Shown piece after piece: positions 36,935-54,143 of a stretch of 54,143 nt of DNA. Where the stretch lies: the NCBI GenBank assembly GCA_964431835.1, contig CAYSKO010000012.1, positions 1-54,143 of the forward strand. The letters are read 5' to 3'. The notes beneath the pieces were generated by a model, which had not been told where the DNA came from, made no database searches, and was given only the letters and a program-made list of their open reading frames with translations. This stretch comes from an uncultured Planctomycetia bacterium (lineage in GTDB: Bacteria > Omnitrophota > Gorgyraeia > 2-02-FULL-51-18). The translations under genes were made by a program, and so were the position numbers. Position 1 is the stretch's first letter; each line of letters opens with the position of its first letter.

Positions 36935-37416
36935 TTCTTGGCCTTGGCCTTTCCTTTTTTGGAAGGACGGCGAAGACCGGTCTCTTCCTCGATCTTGATG
37001 ATCTGGTCCACGCGCCGCTTGTGGCGGCCGCCTTCAAACTTGGTCTCGAGCCACGAACGGACGATAAGTTCGGGTTCGTCGAAGAGATGCTCCGAGCCGA
37101 GAACGAGGATGTTGGCGTCGTTGTGCTGGCGAGAGAGCATCGCCACGCTCTTGTCGAAACAGATCGCCGCGCGGACGTTGGGGAGCTTGTTCGCCGCCAT
37201 CGCCATCCCGTTTCCGCTCTTGCAGATGAGGACGCCCAAGTCGGCCTTGCCGTCGGAGACGGTCTTCGCCACCTTGTACGCGAACTTCGGGTAATCGCAG
37301 GGCTCGGCTGAATTCGTTCCGCAGTCGACGGTCTTATGGCCTTCGCCCGCGAGAAACTCTTTAATTTCGGCTTTCAAATCGTAGCCGCCGTGGTCGGCGC
37401 CGAGCGCGATTTTCAT
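36931..37416 (-). CDS. rpiB: Ribose-5-phosphate isomerase B
   Basis: GADHGG, DYP, IC.SGNG..MAANK, HNDANIL, FEGGRH.RRV. Confidence 0.95.
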
Positions 37417-37426
37417 GGCGTTTCTC

Positions 37427-37882
37427 CTAGAGGGTTTTTACGAGCTTCTCGACGCAGCGTCGGATCACGCCGAGGACGTTCTTGTAAAAGCTGGGCGACA
37501 TGCGAATCGGATCCGGGATGTCCTCCGGGGAACCGTACTCGTCGTTCTGGGCGAATTCCGAAAGGAGGTGCACCTTGCTCTCGGCTTCGGGCAGGACGCG
37601 CACGATCCAGTCTTTGTGAAGCTTCTCCATCACGTAGATCTTGTCCGCGCCATTCACCATTTCAGGCCGCAGACGCTGGCTCTGGTGGCCGGTCGCGTCG
37701 ATCCCCTCGTCCTCAAGAACCCGCACGGTGTCGGGGGTCGCCGCGAAACCGTCGGCCGCGCTGATCCCCGCCGACATCACGGCGAACTCTCCGACTCGCT
37801 TTTCGGTGAGGTGACGGAAAAGCGCCTCGGCCATGACCGAGCGGCAGCTGTTTCCGGTGCAGACGAAGAGAATGCGCTTCAA
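37427..37882 (-). CDS. Low-molecular-weight protein arginine/tyrosine phosphatase (YwlE-like)
   Basis: FVCTGNSCRS P-loop and DIPDP; conserved position before rpiB-glyA. Confidence 0.9.
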   Translation of the reverse strand: MKRILFVCTGNSCRSVMAEALFRHLTEKRVGEFAVMSAGISAADGFAATPDTVRVLEDEGIDATGHQSQRLRPEMVNGADKIYVMEKLHKDWIVRVLPEAESKVHLLSEFAQNDEYGSPEDIPDPIRMSPSFYKNVLGVIRRCVEKLVKTL

Positions 37883-38364
37883 ATGGGGTTTCCCTTAGCG
37901 AGAACCTTTTCGGCGTTCTTCTTCTTGAAGTCCACGAGGGCCTTCGAAAGCTTCTCGTCCTGGAGCGCGAGGATGCGGATAGCCAAATACGCCGCGTTCT
38001 TCGGGCCACCCCCGCCGACGGCGACGGTTCCGACCGGTGTTCCCGCGGGCATCTGGACGGTCGCAAGGAGAGCGTCGAGGCCGCCGAGTGGCGGCGTCTC
38101 GACGGGAATACCAATCACGGGGAGCTCGGTGTTGGCCGCTGTCACGCCGGCCAGGTGCGCGGCGCCGCCGGCGGCCGCGATGATCACTTTCACGCCCTTT
38201 CCTTTCGCGGCCTTCACGTATTCGGCGGCGGCGTCGGGCGTGCGATGAGCGGAAAGCACGCGCGATTCGTAAGGAACCCCGAATTCCTTCAGGACCTCGG
38301 CGCAGGGCCGCAGTTTTTCGGCGTCGGAATCACTTCCCATCAAAATCGCAACGATCGGATTCAT
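37879..38364 (-). CDS. purE: N5-CAIR mutase
   Basis: MGSDSD, SAHRTP, AGGAAHLAG, VQMP.G.PV. Confidence 0.96.
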   Translation of the reverse strand: MNPIVAILMGSDSDAEKLRPCAEVLKEFGVPYESRVLSAHRTPDAAAEYVKAAKGKGVKVIIAAAGGAAHLAGVTAANTELPVIGIPVETPPLGGLDALLATVQMPAGTPVGTVAVGGGGPKNAAYLAIRILALQDEKLSKALVDFKKKNAEKVLAKGNPI

Positions 38365-38381
38365 TTCGTTTCTCCCGTTTC

Positions 38382-39662
38382 TTATTTAAGCACGCGCGTC
38401 GCGCGGTGCCCGATGTCTTTGCGGTAATGCATCTGGTCGAAGAAAATGTGTTCGACCGCGTTGTACGTGCGGGAGAGCGCCTCGAAGATGCCGCGGCCGT
38501 GGCCGACGACGTTAAGCACGCGGCCGCCGGCCGTCACGAGATCCCCGTCGGGCGTGCTCTTGGTACCCGCGTGGAAAACGTGGATGTTCTTGTCCTCGAG
38601 AGCGGTGCGTATCCCGGAGATCTTCCGGCCGGTCTCGTACGACTCAGGGTAACCGGGCGCGCAGAGCACCACGCACACACAGTCTTCTTCTTTCCACTCG
38701 AGCCGCACGGGTTCGAGGCGTTCCTCCACCGTGGCGAGAAAAAGCTCGAGAAGATCGTTCTTGAGGCGTGGCAGGATCGCCTGTGTCTCAGGGTCGCCCA
38801 GGCGCACGTTGAACTCGAGGACGCGGAAACCTTTCGAGGTGAGCATGATGCCCGCGTAGAGAAAACCTTTGTACGGCGTGCCGAGGCGGCGGAACTCGTC
38901 GACGATCGGAAGGAACACGCGCTCGAGAAGCTCGCGCTCGAACGCCTCGGTCACGATCGGCGCGGGCGAATACGCCCCCATGCCGCCCGTGTTAGGGCCG
39001 TGGTCGCCGTCGTACACGCGCTTGTGGTCCTGGCTCGAGGCCAGGAACTTGACGGATTTTCCGTCGGTGACCGCGATGACGGAGGCCTCTTCGCCGTCCA
39101 GAAACTCTTCGACGACGACGCGGTCGCCGGCCTTGCCGAAAACTTTTTTCACCATGTCCACGTGGATCGCTTCCATCGCGATGGGCATCGAGGTCGCGAC
39201 GACGACGCCCTTGCCGCCCGCCAGACCGTCGACCTTGATCACGATCGGAACACCCTTCTTCGCGACGTAATCCATCGCCTTTTCGGCGGACTCAAACGTT
39301 TCGGACTCGCCGGTGGGGATCGAAAGGCGCTTCATGAGCTCTTTCGAGAAGGCTTTCGAGCCTTCGAGACGCGCGGCCGCCTGGGAAGGTCCGAAAATCT
39401 TGATACCTTCTTTCGTGAAACGGTCGACGATGCCTTCGGTCAGCGGCGCCTCGGGCCCGACGACGACGAGATCGACCGCCTTCTCGCGGCAGAAGCGAAG
39501 CAGCGCGTCCTGGTCCTTCGCGGCGATGTCGACGCATTCGGCGACGTCGGTCATGCCCGCGTTTCCGGGCGCGACGTAGAGTTTGGTGAGCTTCGGAGAG
39601 AGCGAAAGCTTCCAGGCGATCGCGTGTTCACGGCCGCCCGAACCGATCACGAGAACGTTCAC
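38382..39662 (-). CDS. purD: Phosphoribosylamine-glycine ligase
   Basis: GSGGREHA, VGPEAPL, LEGSK, QDHKR..DGD.GPNTGGMGAY, EFNVRLGDPE. Confidence 0.98.
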   Translation of the reverse strand: MNVLVIGSGGREHAIAWKLSLSPKLTKLYVAPGNAGMTDVAECVDIAAKDQDALLRFCREKAVDLVVVGPEAPLTEGIVDRFTKEGIKIFGPSQAAARLEGSKAFSKELMKRLSIPTGESETFESAEKAMDYVAKKGVPIVIKVDGLAGGKGVVVATSMPIAMEAIHVDMVKKVFGKAGDRVVVEEFLDGEEASVIAVTDGKSVKFLASSQDHKRVYDGDHGPNTGGMGAYSPAPIVTEAFERELLERVFLPIVDEFRRLGTPYKGFLYAGIMLTSKGFRVLEFNVRLGDPETQAILPRLKNDLLELFLATVEERLEPVRLEWKEEDCVCVVLCAPGYPESYETGRKISGIRTALEDKNIHVFHAGTKSTPDGDLVTAGGRVLNVVGHGRGIFEALSRTYNAVEHIFFDQMHYRKDIGHRATRVLK

Positions 39663-40663
39663 TGGACCGAAACCCCTCCGCCTTTGGTGACTTCCCCGAC
39701 GATCCAGGCGCGCTCGCCGTGTTTCTGGAGATGCGAGATGACTTTTAGCGCGCGGTTCTTCGGCGTGACGAGGATGAGACCGATGCCCATGTTGAACGTG
39801 CGGTACATCTCCCGCGCCGGGACGCGGCCGGACTCTTCGATCCAGCGGAAGACGCGCGGAACGGGCCAGCTGCCCATGTGAATGCGCGCGCCGCGACCCT
39901 CGGGGAGGACGCGCGGAATGTTGTCGAAGAAACCCCCGCCCGTGATGTGCGCCATCGCGAAGACGGGCTCTTTCTGGATGAGCTCGAGGACGGGTTTCAC
40001 GTAGATTTTAGTGGGCTTCAAGATCTCTTCGGCGTGTTTCTTCACGAAGTCCGGCTTTAAAGCCTTCCGCACGAAAGAGAAGCCGTTCGAGTGGACGCCG
40101 CTCGAGGCGATGCCGATGATCGCGTGGCCGGGTTCGACGCCCTTGCCGTCGAGGATTTTACTCTCTTCGACGACTCCAACCGAGAAACCAGCGAGGTCGA
40201 AGTCGCCCTTCGCGTAGAGACCCGGCATTTCGGCAGTCTCTCCGCCGATCAGCGCACATCCCGCGTCCTCGCAGCCTTTGCCGATGCCCTTCACGACCTG
40301 GCGCATCATCTCGTTGTCGAGCTTTCCAACAGCGAAGTAGTCGAGGAAAAAAAGAGGCTCCGCGCCCAGGCAGAGGATGTCGTTCACGTTCATCGCCACG
40401 AGATCGACACCGATGCCTTCGTACAGGCCGGTGAGCTGGGCCAATTTAAGCTTCGTGCCGACGCCGTCGGTCGAAGTGACGAGGATCGGCTTTTTATATT
40501 TCTTCGGAATGCGGCAGAGCGCACCGAATCCGCCGATGCCGGCGACCACTTCGGGACGCCGCGTGGCCCTCGCGTAGGGTTTGATGCTCTCGATGAAATC
40601 GTTCGCCTTGTCGATGTCGACGCCGCACTTCTTGTAGCTTAAGCTTTTACGTTTTGTGGGCAT
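39659..40663 (-). CDS. purM: AIR synthetase
   Basis: TDGVGTKL, DLVAMNVND, GGETAEMPG, SSGVHSNGFS, HITGGG, TFNMGIG. Confidence 0.98.
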   Translation of the reverse strand: MPTKRKSLSYKKCGVDIDKANDFIESIKPYARATRRPEVVAGIGGFGALCRIPKKYKKPILVTSTDGVGTKLKLAQLTGLYEGIGVDLVAMNVNDILCLGAEPLFFLDYFAVGKLDNEMMRQVVKGIGKGCEDAGCALIGGETAEMPGLYAKGDFDLAGFSVGVVEESKILDGKGVEPGHAIIGIASSGVHSNGFSFVRKALKPDFVKKHAEEILKPTKIYVKPVLELIQKEPVFAMAHITGGGFFDNIPRVLPEGRGARIHMGSWPVPRVFRWIEESGRVPAREMYRTFNMGIGLILVTPKNRALKVISHLQKHGERAWIVGEVTKGGGVSVQ

Positions 40664-42113
40664 GCGTGATTCTTTCGCCGCTCCCTAATTTTGCGTTCTC
40701 GGATTTCTCCGTGTGGTATTTGCCGACGCCTTCGAACGGGATCGGGTACTCCCCGCTCCAGCAGGCGGTGCAGTAGTTTTCCTTCGGAAGGCTCACGGAC
40801 GCGAGCATCCCCTCGAGCGAAAGGTAGCCGACGGAGTCGCAGTCGAAGTACTTGCGGATCTCCTCGTCGTTGTACTTGTTGGCGATGAGTTCCTCGCGGG
40901 TCGGGAAGTCGATGCCGTACGCGCACGCGTACTTGTGCGGCGGGCAGGAAATCCGGAGATGGATTTCCTTGGCGCCGGCCTGCCGGAGGCTGCGCACGCG
41001 CATCCGCGAGGTGGTTCCGCGCACGATCGAGTCGTCGACGACGATGACGCGCTTGCCTTTCAGCACTTCGCGGACGAGGTTGAACTTCACCTTCACCTTG
41101 AAATCGCGCATGCCCTGGCTCGGCTGGATGAACGTGCGGCCGACGTAGTGATTGCGGATGATCCCCGCCTCGAGAGGGATGCCCGACTGCTGAGAGAAGC
41201 CGAGCGCGGCGGAGTTGCCCGAGTCGGGCACCGGGATCACGATGTCGGCGTCGACCGGATGCTCGAGGGCGAGCTGGCGGCCGAAACGCTTGCGCACTTC
41301 GTGGACGCTTTCGGTGAAAATCTTGGAATCCGGACGCGCGAAATAGACGTGCTCGAAGATGCAGTGGGCGATCTTCTTCTTCTCAGGGAAAAGATCGTGG
41401 TCGTCGGCGACGATCATCTGCGAGCGCACGCCCTTGTCGGTGATGTAGACGATCTCGCCGGGTTCGATCTCGCGCACGTGCTCGGCGTCCATGATGTCGA
41501 AGGCGCAGGTTTCGGACGCCACGACCCACGCGTCCCCGAGCTTGCCGAGCCAGAGAGGGCGGAACCCTTGAGGATCGCGCGCGGCCACGAGCATGTTGTG
41601 CGTCAGGAAAACGAGCGAGTAGGCGCCGCGCACGCGGGAGAGGGCGTCCGCGATGCCTTCTTCGACGTTGCGGAGCGCGGGCTTGGCCATCAAATGGATG
41701 ATGATCTCGCTGTCGGTCGTCGTCTGGAAGATCGAGCCGTAGGCCTCGAGCTCGGAACGGAGGATGTCGGCGTTGACGAGATTTCCGTTGTGCGCGATCG
41801 CGACTTCGCCGCGCGAGTAGTCGACGAGGATCGGCTGGGCGTTCTTCAAATTCGAGGAACCGGTCGTAGAGTAACGGACGTGGCCGATGGCGCGGTGGCC
41901 CTTCAGCTTGTCGAGGCATTCGCTCGAGAAGACGTCCTGCACATGGCCCATCGCGCGGTGCGACGACATGCGCTCGCCGTCCGTAACCACGATGCCGGCG
42001 GATTCTTCGCCGCGGTGCTGGAGCGCGTAGATACCCAGGTACGTCAGGTACGCGGCGTCTTTATGCCCGAAAATTCCGAATACGCCGCATTTGTCCTTCA
42101 ATTCGCCCGACAT
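40647..42113 (-). CDS. purF: Amidophosphoribosyltransferase (propeptide, Fe-S type)
   Basis: Short propeptide then CGVFG, QHRG, GHVRYST, CIFEHVYFARPDS, VDDSIVRGTT, C-terminal C..C. Confidence 0.98.
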   Translation of the reverse strand: MSGELKDKCGVFGIFGHKDAAYLTYLGIYALQHRGEESAGIVVTDGERMSSHRAMGHVQDVFSSECLDKLKGHRAIGHVRYSTTGSSNLKNAQPILVDYSRGEVAIAHNGNLVNADILRSELEAYGSIFQTTTDSEIIIHLMAKPALRNVEEGIADALSRVRGAYSLVFLTHNMLVAARDPQGFRPLWLGKLGDAWVVASETCAFDIMDAEHVREIEPGEIVYITDKGVRSQMIVADDHDLFPEKKKIAHCIFEHVYFARPDSKIFTESVHEVRKRFGRQLALEHPVDADIVIPVPDSGNSAALGFSQQSGIPLEAGIIRNHYVGRTFIQPSQGMRDFKVKVKFNLVREVLKGKRVIVVDDSIVRGTTSRMRVRSLRQAGAKEIHLRISCPPHKYACAYGIDFPTREELIANKYNDEEIRKYFDCDSVGYLSLEGMLASVSLPKENYCTACWSGEYPIPFEGVGKYHTEKSENAKLGSGERITHAHKT

Positions 42114-42145
42114 CCCGACCTTCCCTTCTATAGACTTACGAAAGC

Positions 42146-44377
42146 TTACGAAGCGGACCCCATGCGGCGGTGGATCGACGTGCGCCAGGCGTGCGAAAGG
42201 ACTTTAAGCGGCGCTTTGACGAGGCCGTTGATCGCGAGCGATTCTCCGCCCACGCGCCCGATCTCGCGGACCGGAACGCCCTTAGATTCTATCACCTCAA
42301 GCGCCCTCTTAGCACGCGCGGCGTCCACGGAAACGACCACCCGCGACTGCGATTCGCCGAAAAGAAGCGCCTGCGGCGTGAGGGAGCCCTGAGGGAGGTC
42401 GACCGTTGCTCCGATCTCTTTTCCCTTAAATGAGATACAGCTTTCGGCAAGCGCGACGGCGAGACCGCCTTCCGAGCAGTCGTGGGCGGACTTGAGGAGC
42501 CCCTCGGCGGCGGTCGAGAGGATGGCGTCCAGAAGGTGCTTTGCCTCGCCGAGATCCAGCCGCGGCACAGGGCCCGCCTTCACGCCGAAAAGAACTTTGA
42601 GGAATTCCGAACCACCGAGCTCCTCGTGGGTGTCACCCAGGAGCAGGATCACATCTCCAGCGTCCTTGAAGTGGGATGTCACGGGCTCGCGCCCTTCCAG
42701 GAGGCCGACCATGCCGATGGTGGGAGTCGGATCGACCGCGCCCTTCGGGTTCTGGTTGTAGAGCGAGACGTTGCCGCCCGAAACCGGCGTCGCGAACGCA
42801 ACGCACGCGTCCCGCATGCCCTCGACCGAACGCTTGAGCTGCCAGAAAATTTCCGGATTGTGCGGGTTACCGAAGTTGAGGCAATTCGTGACCGAAAGCG
42901 GCGCGGCGCCCGAGCAGGCGACGTTGCGCGCGGATTCAGCGACGGCGATTTTGCCGCCGAGATACGGATCGAGGTAGCAGTAGGTCGAATTGCAGTCGAG
43001 CGAAACGGCGATATACTTGTCGGTTCCCTTCACGCGGATCACGGAGGCGTCTGAGCCCGGAAGGACGACCGTGTTCGTGCGCACCATGTGGTCGTACTGT
43101 TCGTAGACCCATTCCTTGGAGGCGATCGTCGGGGAATCGAGGAGCTTGAGGAGCGCGGCGTTCAAGTCCCCGGTCTTCGCGAGCAGCGTCTTCGGATCGA
43201 ACGTTTTCTTTTCCTTATAGTACGCGGGCTCGCGTTCTTCGCGCGTGTACACCGGCGCGTCGTCGGCTAGGCGCTTGGCCGGAATCTCGACGACCGTAAC
43301 GCCGCCTTCCTTCACGCGCATGATGCCGTCGCCGGTCACGAAACCGATCTCCTCGGCGTGGAGGTCCCACTTTTTGAAGATACGCTTAGCTTCGTCTTCG
43401 CGGCCCTTCTGGATGATGACGAGCATGCGTTCCTGGGATTCCGAGAGCATGATCTCGTATGGGATCATGCCGGTCTCACGCTGGGGAACTTTCGCGACGT
43501 CGATCTCGATACCCATGCCGCCGCGCGAGGCGGTCTCGCAGGTCGAGCACGTGAGGCCGGCCGCACCCATGTCCTGGATGCCCACGACGCAGCCGGATTT
43601 GAGGAGCTCAAGCACGGCTTCTAAGAGAAGCTTTTGGAGGAACGGGTCGCCGACCTGGACCGCCGGACGGTCCTTCTCGGATTCCGCGGAGAGATCCTTC
43701 GAGGCGAACGCGGCGCCGCCCATGCCGTCGCGACCGGTCGCGGCGCCGAGATAGAAAACCGGGTTGCCAATGCCTTCGGCCTTCGCCTTCACGATCTCTT
43801 CCTTGCGGGCGAGGCCGAGCGCGAACGCGTTCACGAGCGGATTGCCTTCGTAGGATTCGTCGAAATACACTTCGCCGCCGGTCGTCGGGATGCCCATGCA
43901 GTTGCCGTAGTGCGCGATGCCCGCGACCACGCCGGTGAGAAGGCGTTTAACGGCGGGTTCTTCGATTTTGCCGAAGCGCAGCGAGTTCATGCACATGATC
44001 GGGCGAGCCCCCATGGTGAAGATGTCGCGCAGGATGCCACCCACGCCGGTCGCGGCGCCCTGGAACGGCTCGATCGCCGACGGGTGGTTGTGCGATTCGA
44101 CTTTGAACGCGATCACCCAGCCGTCGCCGATGTCGACGACGCCCGCGTTCTCCTCTCCCGCCTTCACGAGCATGCGGCGGCCGTCCTTCGGAAGGAGCTT
44201 GAGGACGTTCTTGGAATTTTTATAGGAGCAGTGCTCGCTCCACATGACGGAGAAAATGCCGAGCTCCGTGACGTTCGGCTCGCGGCCGAGGATGCTCTTA
44301 ATCTCCTCGTACTCGGAAGGCGTGATGCCGTGTTTCTGGATTAGGTCCGGGGTGATCTCGACGGCCTGGGGGGTCAC
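42146..44377 (-). CDS. purL: FGAM synthase large subunit
   Basis: [56 protein letters not shown]. Confidence 0.98.
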
Positions 44378-45033
44378 ACGGCCTCCAAGATGGATTGGAA
44401 TATCGCCAGGCCGTCGGTGGAGCCGAGCTCCTTTTCGGAGGCGCGTTCGGGATGTGGCATGAGGCCAAACACGTTACGCGCTTCGTTCGTGATTCCCGCG
44501 ATGTCCTCGCGCGAGCCGTTCGGGTTGTCGACGTAGCGGAGGAGGACCTGGTCGTTTTCGTTCAGTTTTTTGAGGGTCGCGTCGTCCGCGTAGTAGTTCC
44601 CCTCGCCGTGCGCGACGGGGATCGAAAGCCGCTGGTCCTTCTTGAGATGTTTCATGAATGGCGAGTGAGTGGAATCCACTTTCAGCGTCACGAATTTGCA
44701 GACGAATTTGAGGGATTCGTTCCGGAGCATCGCGCCCGGCAGAAGACCCGCTTCAAGAAGGATCTGAAAGCCGTTGCAGATGCCGATCACGGGGCGGCCT
44801 TTTTCGGCGTGTTTCTTGACCGCATCCATCACGGGCGAAAAACGGGCGATCGCGCCCGTGCGCAGGTAATCGCCGTAGCTGAAGCCGCCCGGCAGGACCA
44901 CGCAGTCGATCTTCGAGAGGTCGGGATCCTTGTGCCAGACGAACTCCGCCGGCTGGCCGAGCACGTCTTTGACGACGTGCAGGCAATCGTGGTCGCAGTT
45001 CGATCCGGGGAAAACGACGACGCCGAAACGCAT
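44374..45033 (-). CDS. purQ: FGAM synthase glutaminase subunit
   Basis: [37 protein letters not shown]. Confidence 0.98.
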
Positions 45034-45042
45034 GCTGTTCCT

Positions 45043-45282
45043 TTAATTCAATTCGTAGCGGTACTCTTCGATCACGGTGTTCGCGAGAAGCTTCTCGCAC
45101 ATCGACTTCACGCGCTCTTCGGCCTTCGCGCGGTCCACGGCGCCGAGATCGAGCTCGATGTATTTGCCCATACGCACGTCCGAGACGCCGGAGAAACCCA
45201 ACGACTCGAGCGCCTGCTGGACGACTTTCCCCTGCGGGTCGAGGACGGATTTCTTGAGGGTCACATAGACCTTGGCCTTCAT
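45043..45282 (-). CDS. purS: FGAM synthase small subunit
   Basis: VLDPQG, VRMGK, MCEKLLANTVIE. Confidence 0.96.
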   Translation of the reverse strand: MKAKVYVTLKKSVLDPQGKVVQQALESLGFSGVSDVRMGKYIELDLGAVDRAKAEERVKSMCEKLLANTVIEEYRYELN

Positions 45283-46583
45283 TTTTGCCTCCCGAGCGTA
45301 CGGTTGAAGATGGTGCGGACGTGCTTGAGATGATACTCGAGGCCGAAGAGGCCATCGAGTTCACCGGTCGAGAAACGCGAGCTGACCTCGGGCTCTTCGG
45401 AAAGCACGTCCTTCAGATTGAGCGATTTGTCGCGCCAGACGAGCATGCTGTATTTTTGGACGATCTTATAGGCTTCGTCGCGCGAGAGGCCCTTGTCGAT
45501 GAGGGCGAGAAGGACGCGTTGGGAGAAGATGAGGCCGCGCGTCTTCCAGACGTTCTCGAGCATGTTCTCGGGGTACACGTGGAGCCCGGCGACGATCGCG
45601 ATCGTCTCGCGGGTCATGAAGTGCGCGAGGATGAACGAGTCCGGCAGGATCACGCGTTCGACCGAAGAGTGCGTGATGTCGCGCTCGTGCCAGAGCGCGA
45701 TGTTTTCGAGAGCGGCGAGCGCGTTTCCGCGTAGCACGCGCGCAAGACCCGAGACGCGTTCGCAGTTTACGGGATTGCGCTTGTGCGGCATCGCGCTCGA
45801 GCCGGTCTGTCCTTCCGAGAACGGCTCTTCGAGCTCGAGGGTTTCCGTCTTTTGGAGATGGCGCACTTCGGTCGTGAATTTTTCGAGCGAGCCGCCGAGG
45901 ATCGCGATCGCGGTCAGGACCTCGGCGTGGCGGTCGCGCTGGAGGACCTGCGTGGACACCGACGCTACTGCCAGATTGAGCCGCTTCATCGCGCGCTTTT
46001 CAACCTGGGGATCGATGTTCGCGTACGTGCCGACCGCGCCCGAAATCTTTCCGACCGAGATCACGTTTCGCGCCATTTCAAGGCGCAGCAGGTTGCGTTT
46101 AAATTCCTCGTGGAAAAGGAGAAGTTTGAGGCCGAGCGTCACGGGTTCGGCGTGGACGCCGTGGGAGCGGCCCATCATCGGGGTGTCCCGGTAGGCCAAG
46201 GCGAGGCGGCGAAGCTTTTGAATCAGCTCTTCGACCGAGCCGATCAGAAGATCCAGCCCTTCGCGGATCTGGAGAGAAAGCGCGGTGTCGAGGACGTCGC
46301 TTGAGGTAAGGCCTTTGTGGATGAAGCGCGCTTCGGGCCCCACGGATTTACCGACGGACTTGAGGAAAGCGGTTACGTCGTGCTTCGTAACCCTTTCAAA
46401 TTCATGGATTTCCGATACTTTGAATCGGGCTTTCTTCCGGATCTTAACCGCGGCGGCTTTCGGGATCAGGTTAAGCTCCGCCATCGCTTCGCAGGCTGCG
46501 ATTTCAACCTCCAACATCACCTGAAAGCGGTTTTCTTCGGTCCAGATTCTGCCCATTTCGGGCAGGGTGTAACGATTGATCAA
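45279..46583 (-). CDS. purB: Adenylosuccinate lyase
   Basis: INRYT..EM, HDV.AF, TSSDVLDT, GRSHGVHAEP, GSSAMPHKRNP, WHERDITHSSVER. Confidence 0.98.
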   Translation of the reverse strand: MINRYTLPEMGRIWTEENRFQVMLEVEIAACEAMAELNLIPKAAAVKIRKKARFKVSEIHEFERVTKHDVTAFLKSVGKSVGPEARFIHKGLTSSDVLDTALSLQIREGLDLLIGSVEELIQKLRRLALAYRDTPMMGRSHGVHAEPVTLGLKLLLFHEEFKRNLLRLEMARNVISVGKISGAVGTYANIDPQVEKRAMKRLNLAVASVSTQVLQRDRHAEVLTAIAILGGSLEKFTTEVRHLQKTETLELEEPFSEGQTGSSAMPHKRNPVNCERVSGLARVLRGNALAALENIALWHERDITHSSVERVILPDSFILAHFMTRETIAIVAGLHVYPENMLENVWKTRGLIFSQRVLLALIDKGLSRDEAYKIVQKYSMLVWRDKSLNLKDVLSEEPEVSSRFSTGELDGLFGLEYHLKHVRTIFNRTLGRQK

Positions 46584-46699: not shown

Positions 46700-49600
46700 T
46701 TACGCGGCGCTGTCGGTGGCGCGTTTGGAGAGGAGGAGGATCTCGAGATCGGCCGTGAGCGGCTGGGGCTTCACGAGGACGATCACGAAGCCGTAACCCG
46801 AATCCGTCTTCTTGAGATACGGAGCGAGTTCGGGATAGTTCGAAAGATCGAGGCCGGCGGCGTTGAGTGTAGCGACGACGAGGACGCCGGCGAAAGAGAT
46901 GGTTTCGTTGGCGCCGGGGCGCTGGACCGCGAAGACGTTGAGTCGGCCTTGAGCCTTCAGCTTCTGGAGATCGGCGGAGACGGTCGCCATTTCGGCGGCA
47001 ACGTTCTCGGGCGATTCGGAGTTAACCGCGAGGCCGATCGACATGCCACTGCGTTTCATCTCGGGGAAACGGCTCGCGAGCGCGGCGTCGAGGCCGTCGG
47101 CGAGTTTCTCTTCCTTCGAAAGCTCAACGAGAGTGAAACGGACTTTGCCGGCGAGCGCCTGTTCGTGCGCTGCGAGTTTCGCTTCGGCGAGTTCGCGGGC
47201 CTGCCTGGCGAGCGGATCGCCGCGGTGCGTGATCGCGATCATGAGGGTGCCCTGGAAACCGGCGCGTTCGAGTTTGGCTGCGTTGACGCGCGCGCCTTCC
47301 TGGAAATCGACGGTCATGTCATAGCCGTTCTCGTCGAACACGGCTGCGTACGGCATGCCGACGACGTACGTGGTCTGGGGCGCCGCACCGAGAATGGACG
47401 GATCGACCGCCGCGCCCGAGACGCCGTAGATCGACCAGTTCGAGCGCATCCAGAAAACGAGTTTGCCGAGCGACGGGATCGCGTCGAGGAACCGGGAAAG
47501 AAGCGTGCGGGTGTCGGCGATTTCGGGAGCGGCCGTCGGGACGGACGCGGTCGGGACGGGCGTCTCGACGCCGGTGCGAAGCGCGCGAAGCTCTTCGCGG
47601 ACTTCGCCGACGAGCGCGGTGCGGCTTTCGAAGCGCCGGGTTTCGTCGGCTGTGCGAGCGAAGCGCGCGAGCGTTTCGGGCGTGACGCCCGGATTCTGGA
47701 CGGCCGCGAGTTCGGCGGGCGTAGTCACTTCGACGGTGCTGACCGAGACGGCTCCCCGCTCGTCAAGCGAGATACCGTAGACCAAGAGCGGAAGAGCGAC
47801 GGGAACGCCGAGGCGCGGAGCGGTTGACGCGTACGAAACGAGAGCGGGATCGCCGGGCTTCAAGTCGTCGAGGTGGGCCGCGATGCGGGTGCCGGCCTGA
47901 CGGATGTCCGCGATCGCCAGACGCGCTCCGGCGGGGCGCTCGGGAACACGCTCGGCGACGGTGCGGCGCGCGGTAAGGACAGCGTCGCGGAGCTGGGAAA
48001 GAAGGAACGCACGCGTCGTTCCCGAAGGGGCGATTTCTTCGTTCAGCGCGCGGTAAGCGGGGCTCGTGAACTGATTGCGTCGCACGGAAAGGCGCTCGCC
48101 CAGCTCACTCGCAGGGAGTGAGAGTGCTTGGCCGTAAGTTCGAAGGTGGGCCTCGATTTCGTTCTCGGCGGGGCGAAGCGCGGTTTCGAGAGCCGTGACG
48201 TAGCTTTCAAGGTGCGAGAGAACGCGGGGGTCGGAGGCGGCACGCGCGCGGATTTCGTCGACGAGGGCACCGGCCAGGGAAGCGTCCAGGCGCGGAAGCG
48301 TGTTCAAGAATTCCAAAGCGGCGTCGGCGCGCGCGAAGAGCGCGAGCGGATTCGACGCGCCCTCTGCCGTGAGACCGGCAAGAGTCAGACCCTCAACGAT
48401 GCGCGCGGCTTCGGGGAGGCGCTCGAGCGAGCCTTCGCCCGTCAGCGCGTAAACCGAAGTCCGTCCGGCACCCTCGTTCACGGAAAGGCGCAAACGGCTC
48501 GCGTCGAACGGATCGCGGTAAATCTCGACGGCTTCGCGGCCCAGCGCCTGGAACACGGTGGCCACGGGGACGTTCGGCGAACCCGCGAAGGAGAGCGGCT
48601 CGATCCGGGCAGTCTCGCCGGGGCGGCTCACGATCCGGAAAATAGAGAGAGCGTCTTCCAATGCGCCGCGAACGGCCGCGAACCGGATCCGCGTGCCGTC
48701 GGGACGTCGCAGGCCGGTGCGGGTCACGACGGCGAAGGCGCCGAGCGGACCGAACGGACGGGCGTACGCTTCCACCTCGGCTGGCGGCACGCCGAGCGAG
48801 CGAAGGCGCTCGAGGAACTCTTCGAACCTCCCGAAACGTTCGCTGTCGGGACGGTACTCGGCGACCGAACCGCGCGTGCGGATCACGGTGCGGACCGCGT
48901 CGGCGTAATTCAAAACCTGGTCCTCGAACGCGTCCGGCTCGGTTTGATTGATACCGACGAACGCGATGAGCCGCTCGGGACGCCCGAGCACTTGGGCCAC
49001 GCGGTTTTCGAAAATACCGCCGGCCGCGCCGATGAGAAGAGCGGGATACTCCGAGCGCAAGCGCGTCAAAGGATAACCCGCAGCGACGAGAGCTTGCTCG
49101 ACGCGGTCGAAGCGTTTGAGAAGGACGCCTTCGGTGCCGGAACGCAGCGCGGCGTCGAGTGCGGCCTTCACGTCCGGAGCGGTGTCGTCGACGGTCGAGA
49201 ATAGGACCGCGCGCGAAGCGACCGTATCCGTGCGAATCGCGTCGACGCGCTCGGGCGTCGCATCGGGGAGGACCACCACGTTGGCGCCGGCTTCCACGCC
49301 GCGGCGGACGGCCTCGAGGTCGGATTTCTGAAGATGGAGGAAGATTACGGCTTCGGGGCTCTGCCGGCGTGTCTCGGCAACGAGCGCGGCGTTGTCCACG
49401 CCCACCATGACGCGGTTCTGGCGCATGATCTCGCCGAAGCGCCCGATGCGTTCGGGGGCGACCGCTTGGAACGGGGGCTGCGCGCCGATTTCGGTGTGCA
49501 ACCCGCTTTCGACGCGGAATGCGTTCACCTGACGGAGCGTGAGCGTACGCGAAGGCAGGCGCGCGCCGGCAATAGCGGAACCGGACGGAGCGGGGGTCGC

Positions 49601-52600
49601 CGCGGCGGGCTTAAGAACGACGATGTCCTTGCTCACCATGTACTTGGCGGCGCCGAGCACATTTCCGGAATACGCGAGGCTTCCGGTGTCGAGGCGGACG
49701 ATGACGGTCTGTTTGCTGGAATCGCTGGAAGAAACTAGATAGGGCTTGGCCTCCGGGTTGCGGAGCGTACCCGGAGCAATCGCCAAGGAGAACGCTTTCG
49801 CTCCCTCCTCACCGCCGGGGATGGAAGACGCGGAGATGTCGCTCCCCTGCGGCCGCACGAACGCGACGCGGGAGCCGTCCGAGGCACCGGGGTTCAAAAC
49901 CAGCACGTACGCTTTGCGTTCGGACGGCACGCGCAGGGCGACGTAAGTTTTGTTTTCGATGACCGCGACTTTCGCATCGAAGCGCTCTTTGCCTGCGAGC
50001 GTACGCCGGATCTCGCGTTCAGCTTCGTCGGTCTTCATGCGACTTTCCTCGAGGATCTGGAGCAACCGGGTGATGCCTGTCTCCGGGTCCGCCTCATAGA
50101 CGTAATCGGTGGGGGTAGCGGCCATGCGGGCGCCGAAGACGCCGCGGATGTTCCCAGCGACGGTCTCGTAATCTTGGCCACCGTTTTCCGGCAGCGCGGC
50201 CCGGCGCATAGCTTCCGCTAAGTCGGTCTCGAGTGAGCCTGAGAACGACCAGTCGTTCAGGACGCGCACCACGGCGGCCCGGGCGAACGCGTCGGCGGGG
50301 TCGTTCGAAATGGAGATTTTGCCTTCACGGGCGAGCGCTTCGCGGAGCGTGTCGTCTCCGATGAGGATCTCGAGCGCGAGCGGCGCGGCCGGATCAGCCA
50401 TCGCGCGAACGACGCGAGCATCCTTGAGAAGCGCGGGCGCGTTCTTCGCAGCAAACGCGAACGCGAGCAGCTTGAATTCGGGATCCGCTGAGGAGAAAAG
50501 GATCGGCGCTTCGACTTCGGTAGGTATACGCGCACCGGACGCCTTCGAAGCCTGCACGCGGGCGGCCACGTCGCGGAACTCCGCGTCCTTGTGCTGATCG
50601 AGCATCATGGGGCCGGTTCCGGGGATTTTGCTCTTAAGGACGCCCCAGGCGACGTTGACAGGAGCCTTGAACGCATTGATCACCACGCCCTCCTGCTGGA
50701 AGGACTTGGAGTCGGTGCGCGCGGTGAACATGTCGGTGAAGTAGTACTCGGGGTAGTAGAACGCGAAGCCATTGGAGTGCGTCTTCTTGGTCAGCGTCAT
50801 CGGCGTGGTGTCGGGCTTCATCTGTGAGGCGATGAACGTGAACGTGAGCATGCGGTTGAGGAACGGGTTCTGGCCGGTGAACGCCTGGGTGGCGGCGTCC
50901 GAGTCGGCCAAGGCCGGGCCTTCGGCGGTGAAGTCGCGTGAGCCGTCCTGCGTGGCGGCCGATCCGCCCTTTTGGCCGGTGGCGTTGAGGAGTCCTTCGA
51001 AGATCGTGTCCTTCTGGAATTTGTCCTTCATGTAGAGCAAGAGCGCCAGACGGTCTACCGGCAGCGCTTCGGGCGTCAGCTGGGGGTTGTCGTCGATATT
51101 GGCGTTGGAGATGACCTTGCCACCGCGCGCGCTCATGTACTGGTAGGGTGAGACGCTCTCGACGGCGACTTGGCCCGCGTCGTCGATCGTGAAGCTGGTA
51201 CCGGCGGCGTTCAGGTCGCTGGCAATGATGCCGTGGCCGAACACGTGGCGGACCGGGGCCGTCAGGCCGTTGGCCTGGGCGAACGCGGCGTCCATCGGGA
51301 CGAACTCGCCCTTGTCGTTGCGCACGAAGGTCGGGAATACGTTGGCCTGCAAGAACAGCACGTTCTTGCGGTCGAATCCGAAGAAGTTGTTGTCGATCCA
51401 CTCGTCGACGATGTCGGGGCCGGCTTCGCTGTTGATGCTAACAACGAGCTTTCCGTTGGCCTTCACGAACGCTTCGGCGTCGACGCCGCGCTTCTGGGCG
51501 AGTTTTTCCAGTTCGGCGCGGTACTGGATGACTTCGTGCGCGCCCAGGGACAGATCGAGCAGGTACTGTTCGAGAGGATCGAGGTTCGCGGCGGCGGCTT
51601 GAGCCTGTTTTTGGAACGCTTTGAGCTCATCCTTGACCAGCTGGTTCTCGGCCGCGTCCTTGCCGCCGTAGTCGGCAAGCGGAATTAGGTCGAGATCGAG
51701 CGAAGCGAAGTTGCGCAGCGTAAAGAGCGACTTGGCGCCGCCGCCCAGGATCGAAGCCGCGCGCGTGGCCTGGCCGCCCCAGAGCATGAGTTTCACGAAT
51801 TCGCCGGAGGCGACGGAGTCTTCGGCCTTCTGGCGGTAGGGGCCGGCGTCCGGAGTGCTCAGGAAGTCGGCGTTCAGGCGTAGCGGATCGGCTTTTTGGA
51901 GCGTGCCGACGAGCGGATGGCGGTTGATTGTCTTAAGCGCGCTATCGGAGACCGCGCTGGAATCGGCCGGCACGCCCAACGTCTGCGTGAGGGTCTGACC
52001 GACCGAGGTCATGTAGGCTTGGGCGGCGTTATAAGTGGAGGTGTAGGAAGCGGACTGTGCGGGGAGGGCGATGCGGGCGCCCATCGGCAACTCTTTCATC
52101 TTTTCGCGGATGCCGTCGCCGTCCGGATTCTTCTCGAGCCGCTTTTCGTACAACGAGCGGGCAAGATCGTAATTCTTCGCCTTGCGGGCCTGGTCGCCGA
52201 GGAATTCGTAGAGGTCGACGAGCGTCTCGAGCGTCCGCAGGTGCGGGTCGCGGGCGTCCTGGCTGAGCTCGAGCGAACGTGCGAACGAAGCGGCGGCGGA
52301 TTCGAGGAAGTCTTCGGCCGTGCGGCCTTCGGCGTCCAAGCCGAAAATCAGCGAACGCAGGCCGCGCGCGTGCGCTTCGCCGGCCCGGAAATAATTGGCG
52401 CGAGAAGGGTCGTAGTATCTCGCCGCTTCAAACGCAGCGATGGCTTCATCGTAACGCTGGTAGACCGCGAGAATGCGGCCGAGGCGATAATAAGCTCCCG
52501 CCACTTCGAGGGCCGCACTTTCGTGCTCGCCGGCCTGCCGGTCCTCGGAGCCTCTAAGGATGATCTCGAGATTGTTGATTTGACGGCGCAATTCCTGCAC

Positions 52601-54143
52601 CACAGTCTCGTAGACCACCTTGAAAACCTTGATCTCGCCAGAGGAACCGGCGCGCACGACGTTCACCGTGAGATCGCCGCTGACCGGGTCGAACGAAGGC
52701 GCGGCGAGGCCCGGGACCCACGGATTGTTCTTCACGGCGCTGGCGATGGTGGCAAAGTCCTCGGCCGGTACGAGACCGTTGTGCGTAAGGACCGAATCCC
52801 AGGTGCGGGCGTCGGGCGCGTGTTCGGCGTTCGGGTTCGCGAAACCGAACTTCTCGAGGCGTTCGCGTTCGTAATCGGAGAATTCCGCGCCGTCGCGGTC
52901 GAGGTCGGAGTGGGCGGCTTTTTCGCTGAGGCGTTCCGCCGAGACTAGGCGCGCGCTCATTTCGCCGTCGATGGCCTTCACGAGCGTCGCCGTGAGCACG
53001 CCCTCGGGAGCTCCACCGGCACCGGTCATGAAGTCGAGATGCATCGCGAAGTCGTCGCTACTCGCAAGCGCGAGCGTGGGAGTCAGGTCGCCGTCGGCGA
53101 GGAGGAAGAGGTTGCCCACACGCAGGATGCCGACGTCCTTGACGCGTTTGTCGAGCGCCTTGAACGCGCGGTCGAGATCATCCTGCGTCTTTCTGATCAG
53201 CTCCTCGTTGGCCGGCGAGGGCGGTAGATCGCGGGAGGCCTGCGAAGCCTTGAATTTGGCGACGAGGTCGAGAAGGCCAGAGTCGCCGCCGACGTCGATC
53301 CCGCCCTCGAGAAGCTCGATCACGCGGCGGATGTGACGCGGACGGAAAAGAATGCCACCCTTAAGGGCCGAAACGGGTTTACCAGTCTTCGTGGCGATCG
53401 CGTTCAGGTTGTCGGCGGTCTTTTTCTCGACGCTGACGCCAGCGCCCTTGGCCTGCGGACCAACGACCCACTTCGAGATGTAAAGGTCCGGCGCGTTCAT
53501 GAGACCGCCGCGCGGCGCGTAGGCGGCGATCGAGACGCTGCCCTGGATCGCCTCGCGGACGATGCCGTTCGTGAGCTCGAGCACATCGATTGCGATGTCG
53601 GTCTCCGGCTCTTCGGAAGGGCTCGTGAAGCCGCCGCCGACGCGCTCGCCAATGAAAAGCATGGGCGCTTCGTCGCGTTCGCCTTCGCCGATGACGATCT
53701 CGCCTTTCAGGTTCTTGAGGCCGTGGTTGTAATATTCGCGCAGCCAGAACGTGGTCTCGCCATCGCCCTGGTCTTTCGTGAAGGAATTCCTCGAGCCGAG
53801 ATCGTGCTTCCATTTCATCACGCGCTGCGCGGCGATGTTCGTCGCATGGACGAGCTCGGGGCGGTCGGTCTCGTACGAGCCGGCCGTGCGCACGGCTTGG
53901 CCGACGACGGCGACGGTTTTTACGGATTTGACGCGAACGACGTTGTCGTCGATGCCAGGGACATACGAATCGGCGATGCGGCTTTCGGCCGGGGCCATCC
54001 GCGCACCGGTAGCCGCTTGGAGCGCGCGGTCGAGATAGGTTTCCGCCAGACCGATCGCCTGTATGTACTCGTCTTGGACGCCCAGCACGTGGACGATCTG
54101 GCGCAGCTTGTCGGCAAAAACGGGGCTCGCGCGAAGCTTCGCG
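46700..54143 (-). CDS. Giant multi-module protein, 5'-truncated by the window (>2480 aa): GlpX-like FBPase + TPRs, UDP-sugar pyrophosphorylase-like, KDPG-aldolase-like and unknown domains
   Basis: One frame is open from the window edge (AKLRASPVFADKLRQIVHVLGVQ..., no stop upstream of 54088) to TAA at 46700. Several enzyme motifs are recognisable (see sub-features). Confidence 0.9.
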   Translation of the reverse strand, partial: AKLRASPVFADKLRQIVHVLGVQDEYIQAIGLAETYLDRALQAATGARMAPAESRIADSYVPGIDDNVVRVKSVKTVAVVGQAVRTAGSYETDRPELVHATNIAAQRVMKWKHDLGSRNSFTKDQGDGETTFWLREYYNHGLKNLKGEIVIGEGERDEAPMLFIGERVGGGFTSPSEEPETDIAIDVLELTNGIVREAIQGSVSIAAYAPRGGLMNAPDLYISKWVVGPQAKGAGVSVEKKTADNLNAIATKTGKPVSALKGGILFRPRHIRRVIELLEGGIDVGGDSGLLDLVAKFKASQASRDLPPSPANEELIRKTQDDLDRAFKALDKRVKDVGILRVGNLFLLADGDLTPTLALASSDDFAMHLDFMTGAGGAPEGVLTATLVKAIDGEMSARLVSAERLSEKAAHSDLDRDGAEFSDYERERLEKFGFANPNAEHAPDARTWDSVLTHNGLVPAEDFATIASAVKNNPWVPGLAAPSFDPVSGDLTVNVVRAGSSGEIKVFKVVYETVVQELRRQINNLEIILRGSEDRQAGEHESAALEVAGAYYRLGRILAVYQRYDEAIAAFEAARYYDPSRANYFRAGEAHARGLRSLIFGLDAEGRTAEDFLESAAASFARSLELSQDARDPHLRTLETLVDLYEFLGDQARKAKNYDLARSLYEKRLEKNPDGDGIREKMKELPMGARIALPAQSASYTSTYNAAQAYMTSVGQTLTQTLGVPADSSAVSDSALKTINRHPLVGTLQKADPLRLNADFLSTPDAGPYRQKAEDSVASGEFVKLMLWGGQATRAASILGGGAKSLFTLRNFASLDLDLIPLADYGGKDAAENQLVKDELKAFQKQAQAAAANLDPLEQYLLDLSLGAHEVIQYRAELEKLAQKRGVDAEAFVKANGKLVVSINSEAGPDIVDEWIDNNFFGFDRKNVLFLQANVFPTFVRNDKGEFVPMDAAFAQANGLTAPVRHVFGHGIIASDLNAAGTSFTIDDAGQVAVESVSPYQYMSARGGKVISNANIDDNPQLTPEALPVDRLALLLYMKDKFQKDTIFEGLLNATGQKGGSAATQDGSRDFTAEGPALADSDAATQAFTGQNPFLNRMLTFTFIASQMKPDTTPMTLTKKTHSNGFAFYYPEYYFTDMFTARTDSKSFQQEGVVINAFKAPVNVAWGVLKSKIPGTGPMMLDQHKDAEFRDVAARVQASKASGARIPTEVEAPILFSSADPEFKLLAFAFAAKNAPALLKDARVVRAMADPAAPLALEILIGDDTLREALAREGKISISNDPADAFARAAVVRVLNDWSFSGSLETDLAEAMRRAALPENGGQDYETVAGNIRGVFGARMAATPTDYVYEADPETGITRLLQILEESRMKTDEAEREIRRTLAGKERFDAKVAVIENKTYVALRVPSERKAYVLVLNPGASDGSRVAFVRPQGSDISASSIPGGEEGAKAFSLAIAPGTLRNPEAKPYLVSSSDSSKQTVIVRLDTGSLAYSGNVLGAAKYMVSKDIVVLKPAAATPAPSGSAIAGARLPSRTLTLRQVNAFRVESGLHTEIGAQPPFQAVAPERIGRFGEIMRQNRVMVGVDNAALVAETRRQSPEAVIFLHLQKSDLEAVRRGVEAGANVVVLPDATPERVDAIRTDTVASRAVLFSTVDDTAPDVKAALDAALRSGTEGVLLKRFDRVEQALVAAGYPLTRLRSEYPALLIGAAGGIFENRVAQVLGRPERLIAFVGINQTEPDAFEDQVLNYADAVRTVIRTRGSVAEYRPDSERFGRFEEFLERLRSLGVPPAEVEAYARPFGPLGAFAVVTRTGLRRPDGTRIRFAAVRGALEDALSIFRIVSRPGETARIEPLSFAGSPNVPVATVFQALGREAVEIYRDPFDASRLRLSVNEGAGRTSVYALTGEGSLERLPEAARIVEGLTLAGLTAEGASNPLALFARADAALEFLNTLPRLDASLAGALVDEIRARAASDPRVLSHLESYVTALETALRPAENEIEAHLRTYGQALSLPASELGERLSVRRNQFTSPAYRALNEEIAPSGTTRAFLLSQLRDAVLTARRTVAERVPERPAGARLAIADIRQAGTRIAAHLDDLKPGDPALVSYASTAPRLGVPVALPLLVYGISLDERGAVSVSTVEVTTPAELAAVQNPGVTPETLARFARTADETRRFESRTALVGEVREELRALRTGVETPVPTASVPTAAPEIADTRTLLSRFLDAIPSLGKLVFWMRSNWSIYGVSGAAVDPSILGAAPQTTYVVGMPYAAVFDENGYDMTVDFQEGARVNAAKLERAGFQGTLMIAITHRGDPLARQARELAEAKLAAHEQALAGKVRFTLVELSKEEKLADGLDAALASRFPEMKRSGMSIGLAVNSESPENVAAEMATVSADLQKLKAQGRLNVFAVQRPGANETISFAGVLVVATLNAAGLDLSNYPELAPYLKKTDSGYGFVIVLVKPQPLTADLEILLLSKRATDSAA
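48890..49420 (-). other. KDPG/KHG-aldolase-like TIM-barrel module in the giant protein (approximate bounds)
   Basis: AVRRGVEAGANVVVLP, ALRSGTEGVLLKRF and LTRLRSEYPALLIGAAGGI resemble the A..AGA.F.VSP, G...vKlFP and P.GGV motifs of class I KDPG aldolases; divergent. Confidence 0.45.
50540..52060 (-). other. UTP-sugar-1-phosphate uridylyltransferase (UGP/UAP/USP family) module in the giant protein (approximate bounds)
   Basis: KLMLWGGQATR (cf. LAGGQGTRL), FLQANVFP, FGHG, NIDDN, KGG. Confidence 0.7.
52085..52520 (-). repeat. TPR-like helical repeats in the giant protein (approximate bounds)
   Basis: AYYRLGRILAVYQRYDEAIAAFEAARYYDP and LGDQARKAKNYDLARSLYEKRLEKNP match TPR periodicity. Confidence 0.75.
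52600..53870 (-). other. Class II fructose-1,6-bisphosphatase (GlpX-like) module in the giant protein (approximate bounds)
   Basis: GEIVIGEGERDEAPMLFIGERVG, DIAIDVLELT, APDLY, RPRH, DGD, GGAPEGVL...GEMSARL. Confidence 0.85.

Follow-up and report, generated by a model that had tools for sequence, protein, structure and literature searches.

The 54,143-nucleotide contig CAYSKO010000012.1 (assembly GCA_964431835.1), which is the whole stretch of DNA analysed here (the window), comes from an uncultured bacterium of the phylum Omnitrophota and carries at its end the C-terminal part of a giant gene on the minus strand. The full product of this gene (P0002, 4,320 amino acids) is laid out as a signal-like start with a head domain (M1) and then eight further units (M2 to M9), with the motif [S/A]-G-A-R-[M/L/I]-[A/S/P] standing between successive units. 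This junction motif bounds folded units and is constrained at the level of the protein, and the gene and 12 paralogues in the genome form a family with a common head and differing cargo. Judging from sequence, the chances appear about even that the chain is exported and cut at its junctions, that is, that it is a polyprotein. Multi-enzyme fusion as such is already known in Omnitrophota, and the gene is a further member of this class; the junction motif and the family of 13 paralogues with a shared head were not found in print.

The borders of the units coincide with the junction motifs. In the product of the window (P0001), G-A-R followed by M, I or L stands at six places, at each of which the character of the sequence changes (Table 1). 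Over the full product, GAR[MLI][AP] occurs at 8 sites against a mean of 0.09 after shuffling, and none of 2,000 shuffles reached 8. Long frames are no rarity in this genome, which holds 29 stop-to-stop frames of at least 1,800 amino acids. In these frames GAR[ML][AS] was counted at 66 sites (0.51 per 1,000 amino acids), whereas frames of 200–1,499 amino acids (1.38 million amino acids) have 18 sites (0.013 per 1,000), making the motif about 39-fold commoner in the long frames. Six permuted motifs occur only 0–2 times each in the long frames. Each of the positions of G, A and R admits almost no other residue; for instance, the open place of G?R[LM][AS] is filled by A in 66 cases, by Q in 4 and by R in 2. 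Synonymous codons are used within the motif much as elsewhere, with GGC for glycine at 0.62 (background 0.60) and CGC for arginine at 0.59 (background 0.59), GCG for alanine being somewhat raised (0.65 vs. 0.46). Because the motif codons vary synonymously in background proportions, the constraint acts on the protein. Two other origins of the motif were considered and rejected. A ribosome-binding site or internal start does not agree with GGC rather than GGA as the commonest glycine codon, with the synonymous variation or with relatives that carry Leu instead of Met; a fusion scar or DNA-level repeat is likewise at odds with the background-like synonymous variation and with Leu in the relatives.

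Structure models were made for M5 and M8, and four sites lie at the edges of what is confidently folded. The confident fold begins just after site 688 in the M5 model and just after site 1526 in the M8 model, and that of M5 ends just before site 1203, where the predicted local distance difference test score (pLDDT) falls from 97 and 82 to 43. P0003 and P0005, at 54% and 49% identity, retain the sites on both flanks of M5. In P0004, P0005, P0006, P0016 and P0058 no 4-mer is more enriched than GARL; P0004 (3,795 amino acids) alone contains 15 GARL and 6 G-S-R-L sites, and P0016 contains 12 sites.

The single frame, which an earlier note on this DNA had described as still open at the window edge, was confirmed (Table 1). 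Since the window is the entire contig C12 of a 2.32-Mb genome in 68 contigs (100% complete, 0.99% contamination), it is the assembly, not the window, that truncates the gene. The full gene product with its signal-like N-terminus was retrieved by a search of a large protein collection from the 69-kb contig of another assembly, and differs from P0001 at a single residue. Its first 1,858 residues, outside the window, are encoded on C16:1–5598 (minus). The gene parts on C12 and C16 overlap by 18 residues, the last 55 nucleotides of C12 being the first 55 of C16, with an exact overlap in frame. Logan contigs from three microbial-mat runs cover 50000–53692 in one piece with 0, 0 and 5 differences, and Logan records of 6.9–7.6 kb continue past the window end. 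The assembly may derive from two of these runs; the third, X3, with the 5 differences, is a separate sample and study independent of the likely sources, and its contig also extends past the window end. That the long frame might be an assembly chimera is suggested by its split over two contigs of a 68-contig metagenome bin and by the unitigs of all four public runs, which break at 53663–53697. This stretch encodes the conserved GlpX motif IVIGEGERDEAP, and the break is therefore a shared word and not a mis-join. In view of the independent contig holding the same 4,320-residue product, the exact C12/C16 overlap and the third sample, a chimera is scarcely credible. The gene is real and contiguous, and mis-assembly, which the earlier note had considered as its refutation, is very unlikely. 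Contigs of 4,255 and 6,398 nucleotides share 34 nucleotides at 53663–53697, and other glpX genes of the community carry the same word.

Twelve other long frames in the genome have at their N-termini a match to the first ~520 residues of P0002 (E 4e-35 to 6e-90). Together the head-bearing frames hold 57 strict junction sites, and many of them show an [A/G]-A-R-M-[A/S/T] site 590–665 residues in, just after the head. In P0002 an A-A-R-M-A variant follows the head at ~585–590, ~35 residues before the first G-A-R site, and at least four paralogues have this variant at the equivalent position. The N-terminus of P0002 consists of K6, K7 and R13, a hydrophobic window at 16–34 and then G-H-A/A-P, and the succession of basic, hydrophobic and small-x-small elements was found in 11 of 11 aligned paralogues. 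The window at 16–34 is strong; the other hydrophobic window of P0002, at 4255, is weak.

What follows the head differs from paralogue to paralogue. Among the 88 units scanned, 22 gave a Pfam family, and the cargo includes protein kinases (four), methyltransferases, ABC1 kinase, M48 peptidase, FHA, receiver, PPDK, UDPGP, PGK (two), WD40, endo/exonuclease-phosphatase, NTP transferase, APH and HEAT. Two phosphoglycerate-kinase units and a WD40 propeller, bounded by the junction motif, are encoded at C25:7265–15244 and C25:782–7141, and a Glu/Leu/Phe/Val dehydrogenase unit, also bounded by the motif, occurs in the paralogue at C30:8803–16083. A further head-bearing gene (C16:13707–19967, minus; 2,087 amino acids), with endo/exonuclease-phosphatase, NTP-transferase and APH units, is located ~8 kb upstream of the start of the giant gene on the same strand.

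The head is widespread in the phylum. Of 301 Omnitrophota genomes sampled, 188 contain matches to its profile, frequently many in one genome and in frames of 545 to 16,618 amino acids. Across 39 sequences drawn from many genomes, its invariant residues include D80, H82, Q88, E110, E147, E259, R453, H481 and G-G-[YF]-H. No Pfam family was assigned to the head domain, and its profiles had no match in the PDB; none of the 7 matches of the head profile in a large protein collection has a Pfam family assigned to the head, and M1 in the ESM Atlas retrieved only unnamed Omnitrophota clusters (0.92–0.95). DUF5694 was matched by 3 of the 39 head members. The order of the invariants, Q-D-A-H, E-G and G-G-[YF]-H, may resemble that of the Tiki/ChaN/TraB superfamily, and a Tiki/ChaN-like identity of the head is a lead only.

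Of the enzyme-like units, M4 is the most clearly assigned. The GlpX-like fructose-1,6-bisphosphatase proposed in the earlier note scores 157–161 bits against Pfam GlpX PF03320 (gathering cut-off 27), and the TPRs proposed beside it are borne out by a TPR_2 match of 27.3 bits. The active site of E. coli GlpX is formed by D33, E57, D85, E88, T90, Y119, K164, R166, D188 and E213 (PMC5892879). The corresponding residues were read from an alignment to E. coli GlpX 1ni9_A; with the numbering shifted by +2, each of the ten listed residues coincides with its stated residue type. M4 keeps all ten positions (D127, E153, D186, E189, T191, Y221, R267, R269, D352 and E380), nine of them identical, while K164 is replaced by R (R267) as in the M. 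tuberculosis enzyme. Compared with ordinary GlpX, M4 is alike in its match to PF03320 far above the cut-off and in its active-site positions. It differs in the ~61-residue insertion between its two GlpX halves, in the TPR tail, in the polyprotein setting and in a score below the NCBIfam equivalog cut-off (TIGR00330; 146.3 vs. 259.3 bits). Because no junction motif separates GlpX from the TPRs inside M4, this pair is a true fusion. An ordinary stand-alone glpX is present at C1:152127–153023 (348 bits vs. Pfam), as the earlier note had thought worth checking for each enzyme.

M5 had been proposed to be UDP-sugar-pyrophosphorylase-like, and profile and fold agree with this although Pfam is null (no family at E<=10, PF01704 included). 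A profile built from 39 relatives retrieved 16 PDB sequences at E<=1, all 16 of them UDP-GlcNAc, UDP-Glc or UDP-sugar pyrophosphorylases (UAP/UGP/USP; best 4e-7). The AF2 model has a mean pLDDT of 78.9, with ~80–98 over construct residues 20–530, and all the rows listed by Foldseek are UAP/UGP/USP as well (E 8e-13 to 2e-10; TM-score on the target 0.43–0.60). From profile and model, M5 is thus predicted to be a very divergent UDP-sugar pyrophosphorylase fold. The family keeps H295, G296, D343, Q382, G384 and G385. Its glycine-rich signature has the consensus A-G-x-A-T-R and reads G-G-Q-A-T-R in this protein; the nucleotide-binding signature of UDPGP presumably contains Lys, of which A-G-x-A-T-R would be an altered form. 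A paralogous unit on C14 just passes PF01704 (23.8 bits vs. 22). No stand-alone PF01704 gene was found in the genome, galU-type PF00483 not having been searched for. In the Omnitrophota sample, the M5 profile was found in 39 of 301 genomes, mostly in frames from thousands up to 44,145 amino acids, and an exhaustive search likewise placed its relatives mostly within long proteins. Some relatives of 460–520 amino acids, not confirmed as whole genes, have Met near the first residues of the unit and end a few residues from the last helix. Relatives of the window product are named Candidatus Omnitrophota/Omnitrophica, and a related-locus search with a single protein query gave one locus.

For M8, the aldolase-like barrel of the earlier note was recovered in the model, in Foldseek and by VIA. 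The first ~230 residues form eight beta/alpha repeats with pLDDT above 87, and the best Foldseek match is the KDPG/KHG aldolase (2-keto-3-deoxy-6-phosphogluconate/2-keto-4-hydroxyglutarate aldolase) 1vlw_B (5.4e-7). VIA gave Z of 18.2–20.2 against some thirty KDPG/KHG aldolases and cages designed from one, with root-mean-square deviations of 2.4–2.9 Å over 189–199 residues. The runners-up were indole-glycerol-phosphate synthases (Z <=18.2), which stand within ~2 Z units of the KDPG/KHG aldolases, and tryptophan synthase alpha (16.6–16.8). A near-invariant Lys (K1676 of P0001, K162 of the construct) is located at the end of predicted strand 6, a place that would correspond to the Schiff-base Lys carried by class I KDPG aldolases on strand 6. 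No match to PF01081 (Eda) was found in the genome at E<=1, nor for M8, and the profile A2 gave only weak TIM-barrel and CheY matches in the PDB (E 0.005 or worse). On its model, M8 is best described as a TIM barrel closest to KDPG/KHG aldolases.

The remaining units are less informative. No significant PDB match came from M5, M8 or M9 searched as single sequences. M9 was null in Pfam too, and its best ESM Atlas score (0.78) is below use. M6 and M7 are null in Pfam, and none of the relatives, among 103 matches, has its best match within them. Since no confident fold or relatives were obtained for M6, M7, M9 and the tail of M8, the borders of these parts are placed by the motif alone.

Table 1. 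Units, domains and junction sites of the giant gene. Window positions refer to contig C12.
Feature	Window position	Strand	Residues	Description
Giant gene, C-terminal part	46700..54142	minus		2,480 sense codons and stop; no stop before the last base of the window
M1			P0002 1–622	Signal-like start and head domain of ~500 residues; on C16
M2			P0002 623–1516	GT5 starch/glycogen-synthase domain, PF08323, E 1.7e-8
M3	53999..54142 (last 48 residues)	minus	P0002 1517–1888	No family found
M4	52073..53998	minus	P0002 1889–2530 (P0001 49–690)	GlpX class II fructose-1,6-bisphosphatase, then TPRs
GlpX profile positions 6–179	53291..53857	minus		116 bits
GlpX profile positions 179–246	52841..53110	minus		After the ~61-residue insertion
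TPR repeats	52103..52501	minus	P0001 548–680	
M5	50528..52072	minus	P0002 2531–3045 (P0001 691–1205)	Predicted divergent UDP-sugar pyrophosphorylase (UDPGP-like) fold
M6	50126..50527	minus	134 amino acids	No relatives found
M7	49559..50125	minus	189 amino acids	No relatives found
M6 and M7 together			P0002 3046–3368	
M8	47921..49558	minus	P0002 3369–3914 (P0001 1529–2074)	Predicted KDPG/KHG-aldolase-like TIM barrel and helical tail
M8 barrel part	~48872–49567	minus		Tail after the barrel of low confidence
M9	46703..47920	minus	P0002 3915–4320 (406 amino acids)	No family found
Junction GARMA	53993..54007	minus	P0001 46	
Junction GARIA	52067..52081	minus	P0001 688	
Junction GARIP	50522..50536	minus	P0001 1203	Directly after the last confident M5 helix
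Junction GARMA	50120..50134	minus	P0001 1337	
Junction GARLP	49553..49567	minus	P0001 1526	Directly before the confident M8 barrel
Junction GARLA	47915..47929	minus	P0001 2072	
Weak GARVN	47282–47296	minus		Inside M9

In the mechanism proposed here, the whole chain would be exported by the Sec route through its signal-like N-terminus, and a sequence-specific protease would then cut it at the junctions, so that one gene would yield about nine separate proteins. The enzyme units are complete and probably competent. Fructose 1,6-bisphosphate (FBP), uridine triphosphate (UTP) and sugar-1-phosphates are cytoplasmic substrates. Because FBP, UTP and sugar phosphates are cytoplasmic, exported enzyme units would act inside another cell, and the released units might thus have their place of action in a partner or prey cell, not in the periplasm, a step that is proposed still more tentatively. 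The cleavage, the protease and the action in a host are what we infer from this layout.

Several candidates may be named for the protease, including the head itself, the M48 domain in the C8 giant frame, the S8 domain in a frame of 26,839 amino acids, a 472-amino-acid S8 gene on C16, C39 and C14. A cut after Arg would suit trypsin-like, kexin-like or caspase-like enzymes, and a cut after G-A those of the C39 type. A search for the Arg-specific protease C11 found none in the genome, the single C14 match is on the low-G+C contig C53, and C39 domains occur only on C21 (G+C 0.535) and C47 (0.511). A double-glycine site of the C39 type was not seen among the variants of the motif, none of which has G-G, though G-A and G-S occur. 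A complex prediction of the head (38–557) with a 40-residue junction peptide scored 0.00, which is no evidence either way.

The reading of the chain as a cleaved polyprotein has to be held against several observations that speak against it. The motif is not general, as the 45 GAR[ML][AS] sites among the M5/M8 relatives all fall in 9 of 103 proteins; because the other 94 of the 103 (154,912 amino acids in all) have none, the motif belongs to one lineage. Most head-domain loci of other families are also without a site in their first ~1,000 residues, and no universal junction motif after the head was evident in 29 loci of other genomes. The signal peptide is judged from nothing more than the sequence and a hydropathy window, no protease has been tied to the motif, and no RNA run was listed as holding the stretch. 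For M6, M7, M9 and the tail of M8, neither a confident fold nor relatives were obtained. As for the head, ChaN (PF04187, Tiki superfamily) was matched weakly in 6 of 39 members (best E 0.016, below cut-off), PF01963 was null on this genome and matched in 1 of 151 Omnitrophota genomes, and hhalign of the head with one TraB aligned the signal segment only (probability 1.9%). Finally, the neighbours of the gene are ordinary purine-synthesis genes, with no secretion or protease gene context.

In another lineage a second motif, K-[S/T]-S-S-[A/S]-G, was found 2–4 times per protein in P0018, P0055, P0060, P0064 and P0070, often directly before an M5-like unit starting L-S-P-x-Q. This hints, at the level of sequence, that junction motifs differ by lineage.

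It is possible, though distinctly less probable than cleavage, that the chain remains uncut and serves as a membrane-tethered or surface multi-enzyme scaffold, a metabolon or "coat", in which the motif would act as a conserved linker or as the place where, for example, a chaperone, modifying enzyme or partner protein docks. Such a scaffold agrees with the one open frame, with the TPRs inside M4 and the HEAT repeats in paralogues and relatives, with published work treating such proteins as cell-surface assemblies, and with the fact that the fructose-bisphosphatase, UDP-sugar pyrophosphorylase-like and GT5 units could make one route. Nevertheless, the order of the units is without pathway logic, and a mere linker would not call for five set residues in which G, A and R are nearly exclusive. 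Behind the same head, the paralogues have cargo of unrelated kinds, kinases, methyltransferases and FHA among them; homologues of M5 exist at the length of one unit, and UTP and FBP are absent outside the cell, as established biochemistry has it. The earlier note had offered a metabolon as one of two meanings, and this idea loses weight in view of the junction motif and of paralogues whose cargo is unrelated. Its other proposal, a cargo set redirecting hexose-phosphate flux, fits the signal-like N-terminus, the autonomous units, the junction motifs and the kinase and methyltransferase paralogues, while action in a host is suggested far more weakly.

Quite unlikely, in our estimate, are enzyme-like units kept for their folds only and exported into an adhesive surface layer as binding modules or pseudo-enzymes. 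The signal-like N-terminus would suit this, M5 and M8 are too divergent for Pfam, and the glycine-rich signature of UDPGP would be altered to A-G-x-A-T-R. However, the GlpX unit retains every one of its active-site positions, the M8 family keeps its Lys at the end of strand 6, and the conserved residues of the M5 family listed above point in the same direction.

Giant proteins with many enzyme domains have been described in this phylum before. The preprint of West-Roberts et al. (2023; bioRxiv 10.1101/2023.11.21.568195) reports fructose-1,6-bisphosphatase, aldolase, TPI, GPI, PGM, GT5 and TPR domains in giant Omnitrophota proteins, and a 2026 preprint defines "multi-enzyme metabolic clusters" with a sugar module (bioRxiv 10.64898/2026.06.07.730766). 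Giant multi-enzyme genes in Omnitrophota, mentioned in the earlier note, are hence on record in both preprints, and its remark that enzymes of this kind are as a rule not fused no longer applies to Omnitrophota, where West-Roberts et al. (2023) already place fructose-1,6-bisphosphatase, aldolase and GT5 in giant proteins. Giant frames were found to be poorly annotated (Seymour et al., 2023). Cleavage was suggested in the 2023 preprint from C39 and S8 domains, its authors stating that they have no information on where the cuts fall (bioRxiv 10.1101/2023.11.21.568195), and the words "cleav", "polyprotein", "linker" and "proteoly" do not occur in the text of the 2026 preprint that was at hand (bioRxiv 10.64898/2026.06.07.730766). 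Neither the junction motif nor the shared head domain appears in the texts of the two preprints, supplements not covered, and a full-text literature search found no paper combining Omnitrophota with polyprotein.

The gene resembles these multi-enzyme clusters, or Archaeovorins, in its phylum, in the many distinct enzyme domains that tile one chain, in the lack of annotation over most of the sequence and in a sugar set of GT5 starch synthase, fructose-1,6-bisphosphatase, aldolase and TPR. It differs from them in its length of 4,320 amino acids, below the thresholds of 10,000 (2026) and 30,000 (2023), in having just one hydrophobic segment, at the N-terminus, where they have many membrane helices, and in that no C39 or SecA domain was found in P0002. 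MARTX toxins are very long secreted proteins whose unrelated enzyme effector units are released by cuts in the linkers; they carry their own cysteine protease domain and glycine-rich repeats at both ends, and are cut after Leu. The likeness lies in the array of unrelated enzyme units in one long chain, whereas a cysteine protease domain, terminal glycine-rich repeats and Leu cuts were not found here. Bacterial surface polyproteins that are processed at short sites recurring between their domains include gingipain/HagA of Porphyromonas gingivalis, where the gingipain sites follow Arg or Lys, and the P97/P102 adhesins of Mycoplasma hyopneumoniae. Their units are adhesin and protease domains and not metabolic enzymes, and there is no sequence relation. 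In viral polyproteins, complete proteins are joined in frame through a short conserved junction and cut by a dedicated protease; unlike these, the present gene is a cellular, chromosomal one beside purine-synthesis genes.

Downstream of the giant gene, purB, purQ, purL, purF, purM, purD, purE, rpiB, glyA and nrdR follow on the minus strand (35172–46583), and an FtsH-like AAA/M41 protease is encoded farther on (30770–32404). The longest frames of the genome comprise 26,839 amino acids (C9:3–80519, plus) and 12,389 amino acids (C6:2–37168, minus), and both run off their contigs. An S8 peptidase domain is located at 15201–15935 of the C9 frame; because this frame has only 2 GAR[MIL][AP] sites, it seems to be of a type other than the head-plus-junction family. 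Contigs C28, C43, C56, C57, C64 and C68 (G+C 0.34–0.38) and C49, C53 and C55 (0.41–0.46) depart from the ~0.61 of the bin, and may be mis-binned or mobile DNA.

The giant proteins of Omnitrophota rank with the longest proteins known, and they may act either as intact chains or as fragments. The lack of cleavage points blocked an analysis unit by unit in the 2023 preprint, as its authors state (bioRxiv 10.1101/2023.11.21.568195). The junction motif provides a concrete cleavage hypothesis and a practical rule for splitting giant proteins for structure prediction. The shared head, with its reach across 188 of 301 genomes, ties many long proteins into one family with exchangeable cargo, and a common head with exchangeable cargo is the layout of secreted effector systems. 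It may be imagined, although as a whole this is rather unlikely, that these are "headed" effector polyproteins of Omnitrophota, in which a phylum-wide head exported by Sec, possibly a Tiki/ChaN-like metal-dependent protease, would precede a series of whole enzymes, kinases and methyltransferases that reach a partner or prey cell, the chain being cut at lineage-specific motifs (G-A-R-[M/L]-A in the present lineage, K-[S/T]-S-S-[A/S]-G in another one). The freed units, in this case a fructose-1,6-bisphosphatase, a UDP-sugar pyrophosphorylase, a glycan synthase and an aldolase, would then redirect the hexose-phosphate pool of the host. If this is true, the junction motifs would be the missing rule for dividing the giant proteins of the phylum into their working parts.

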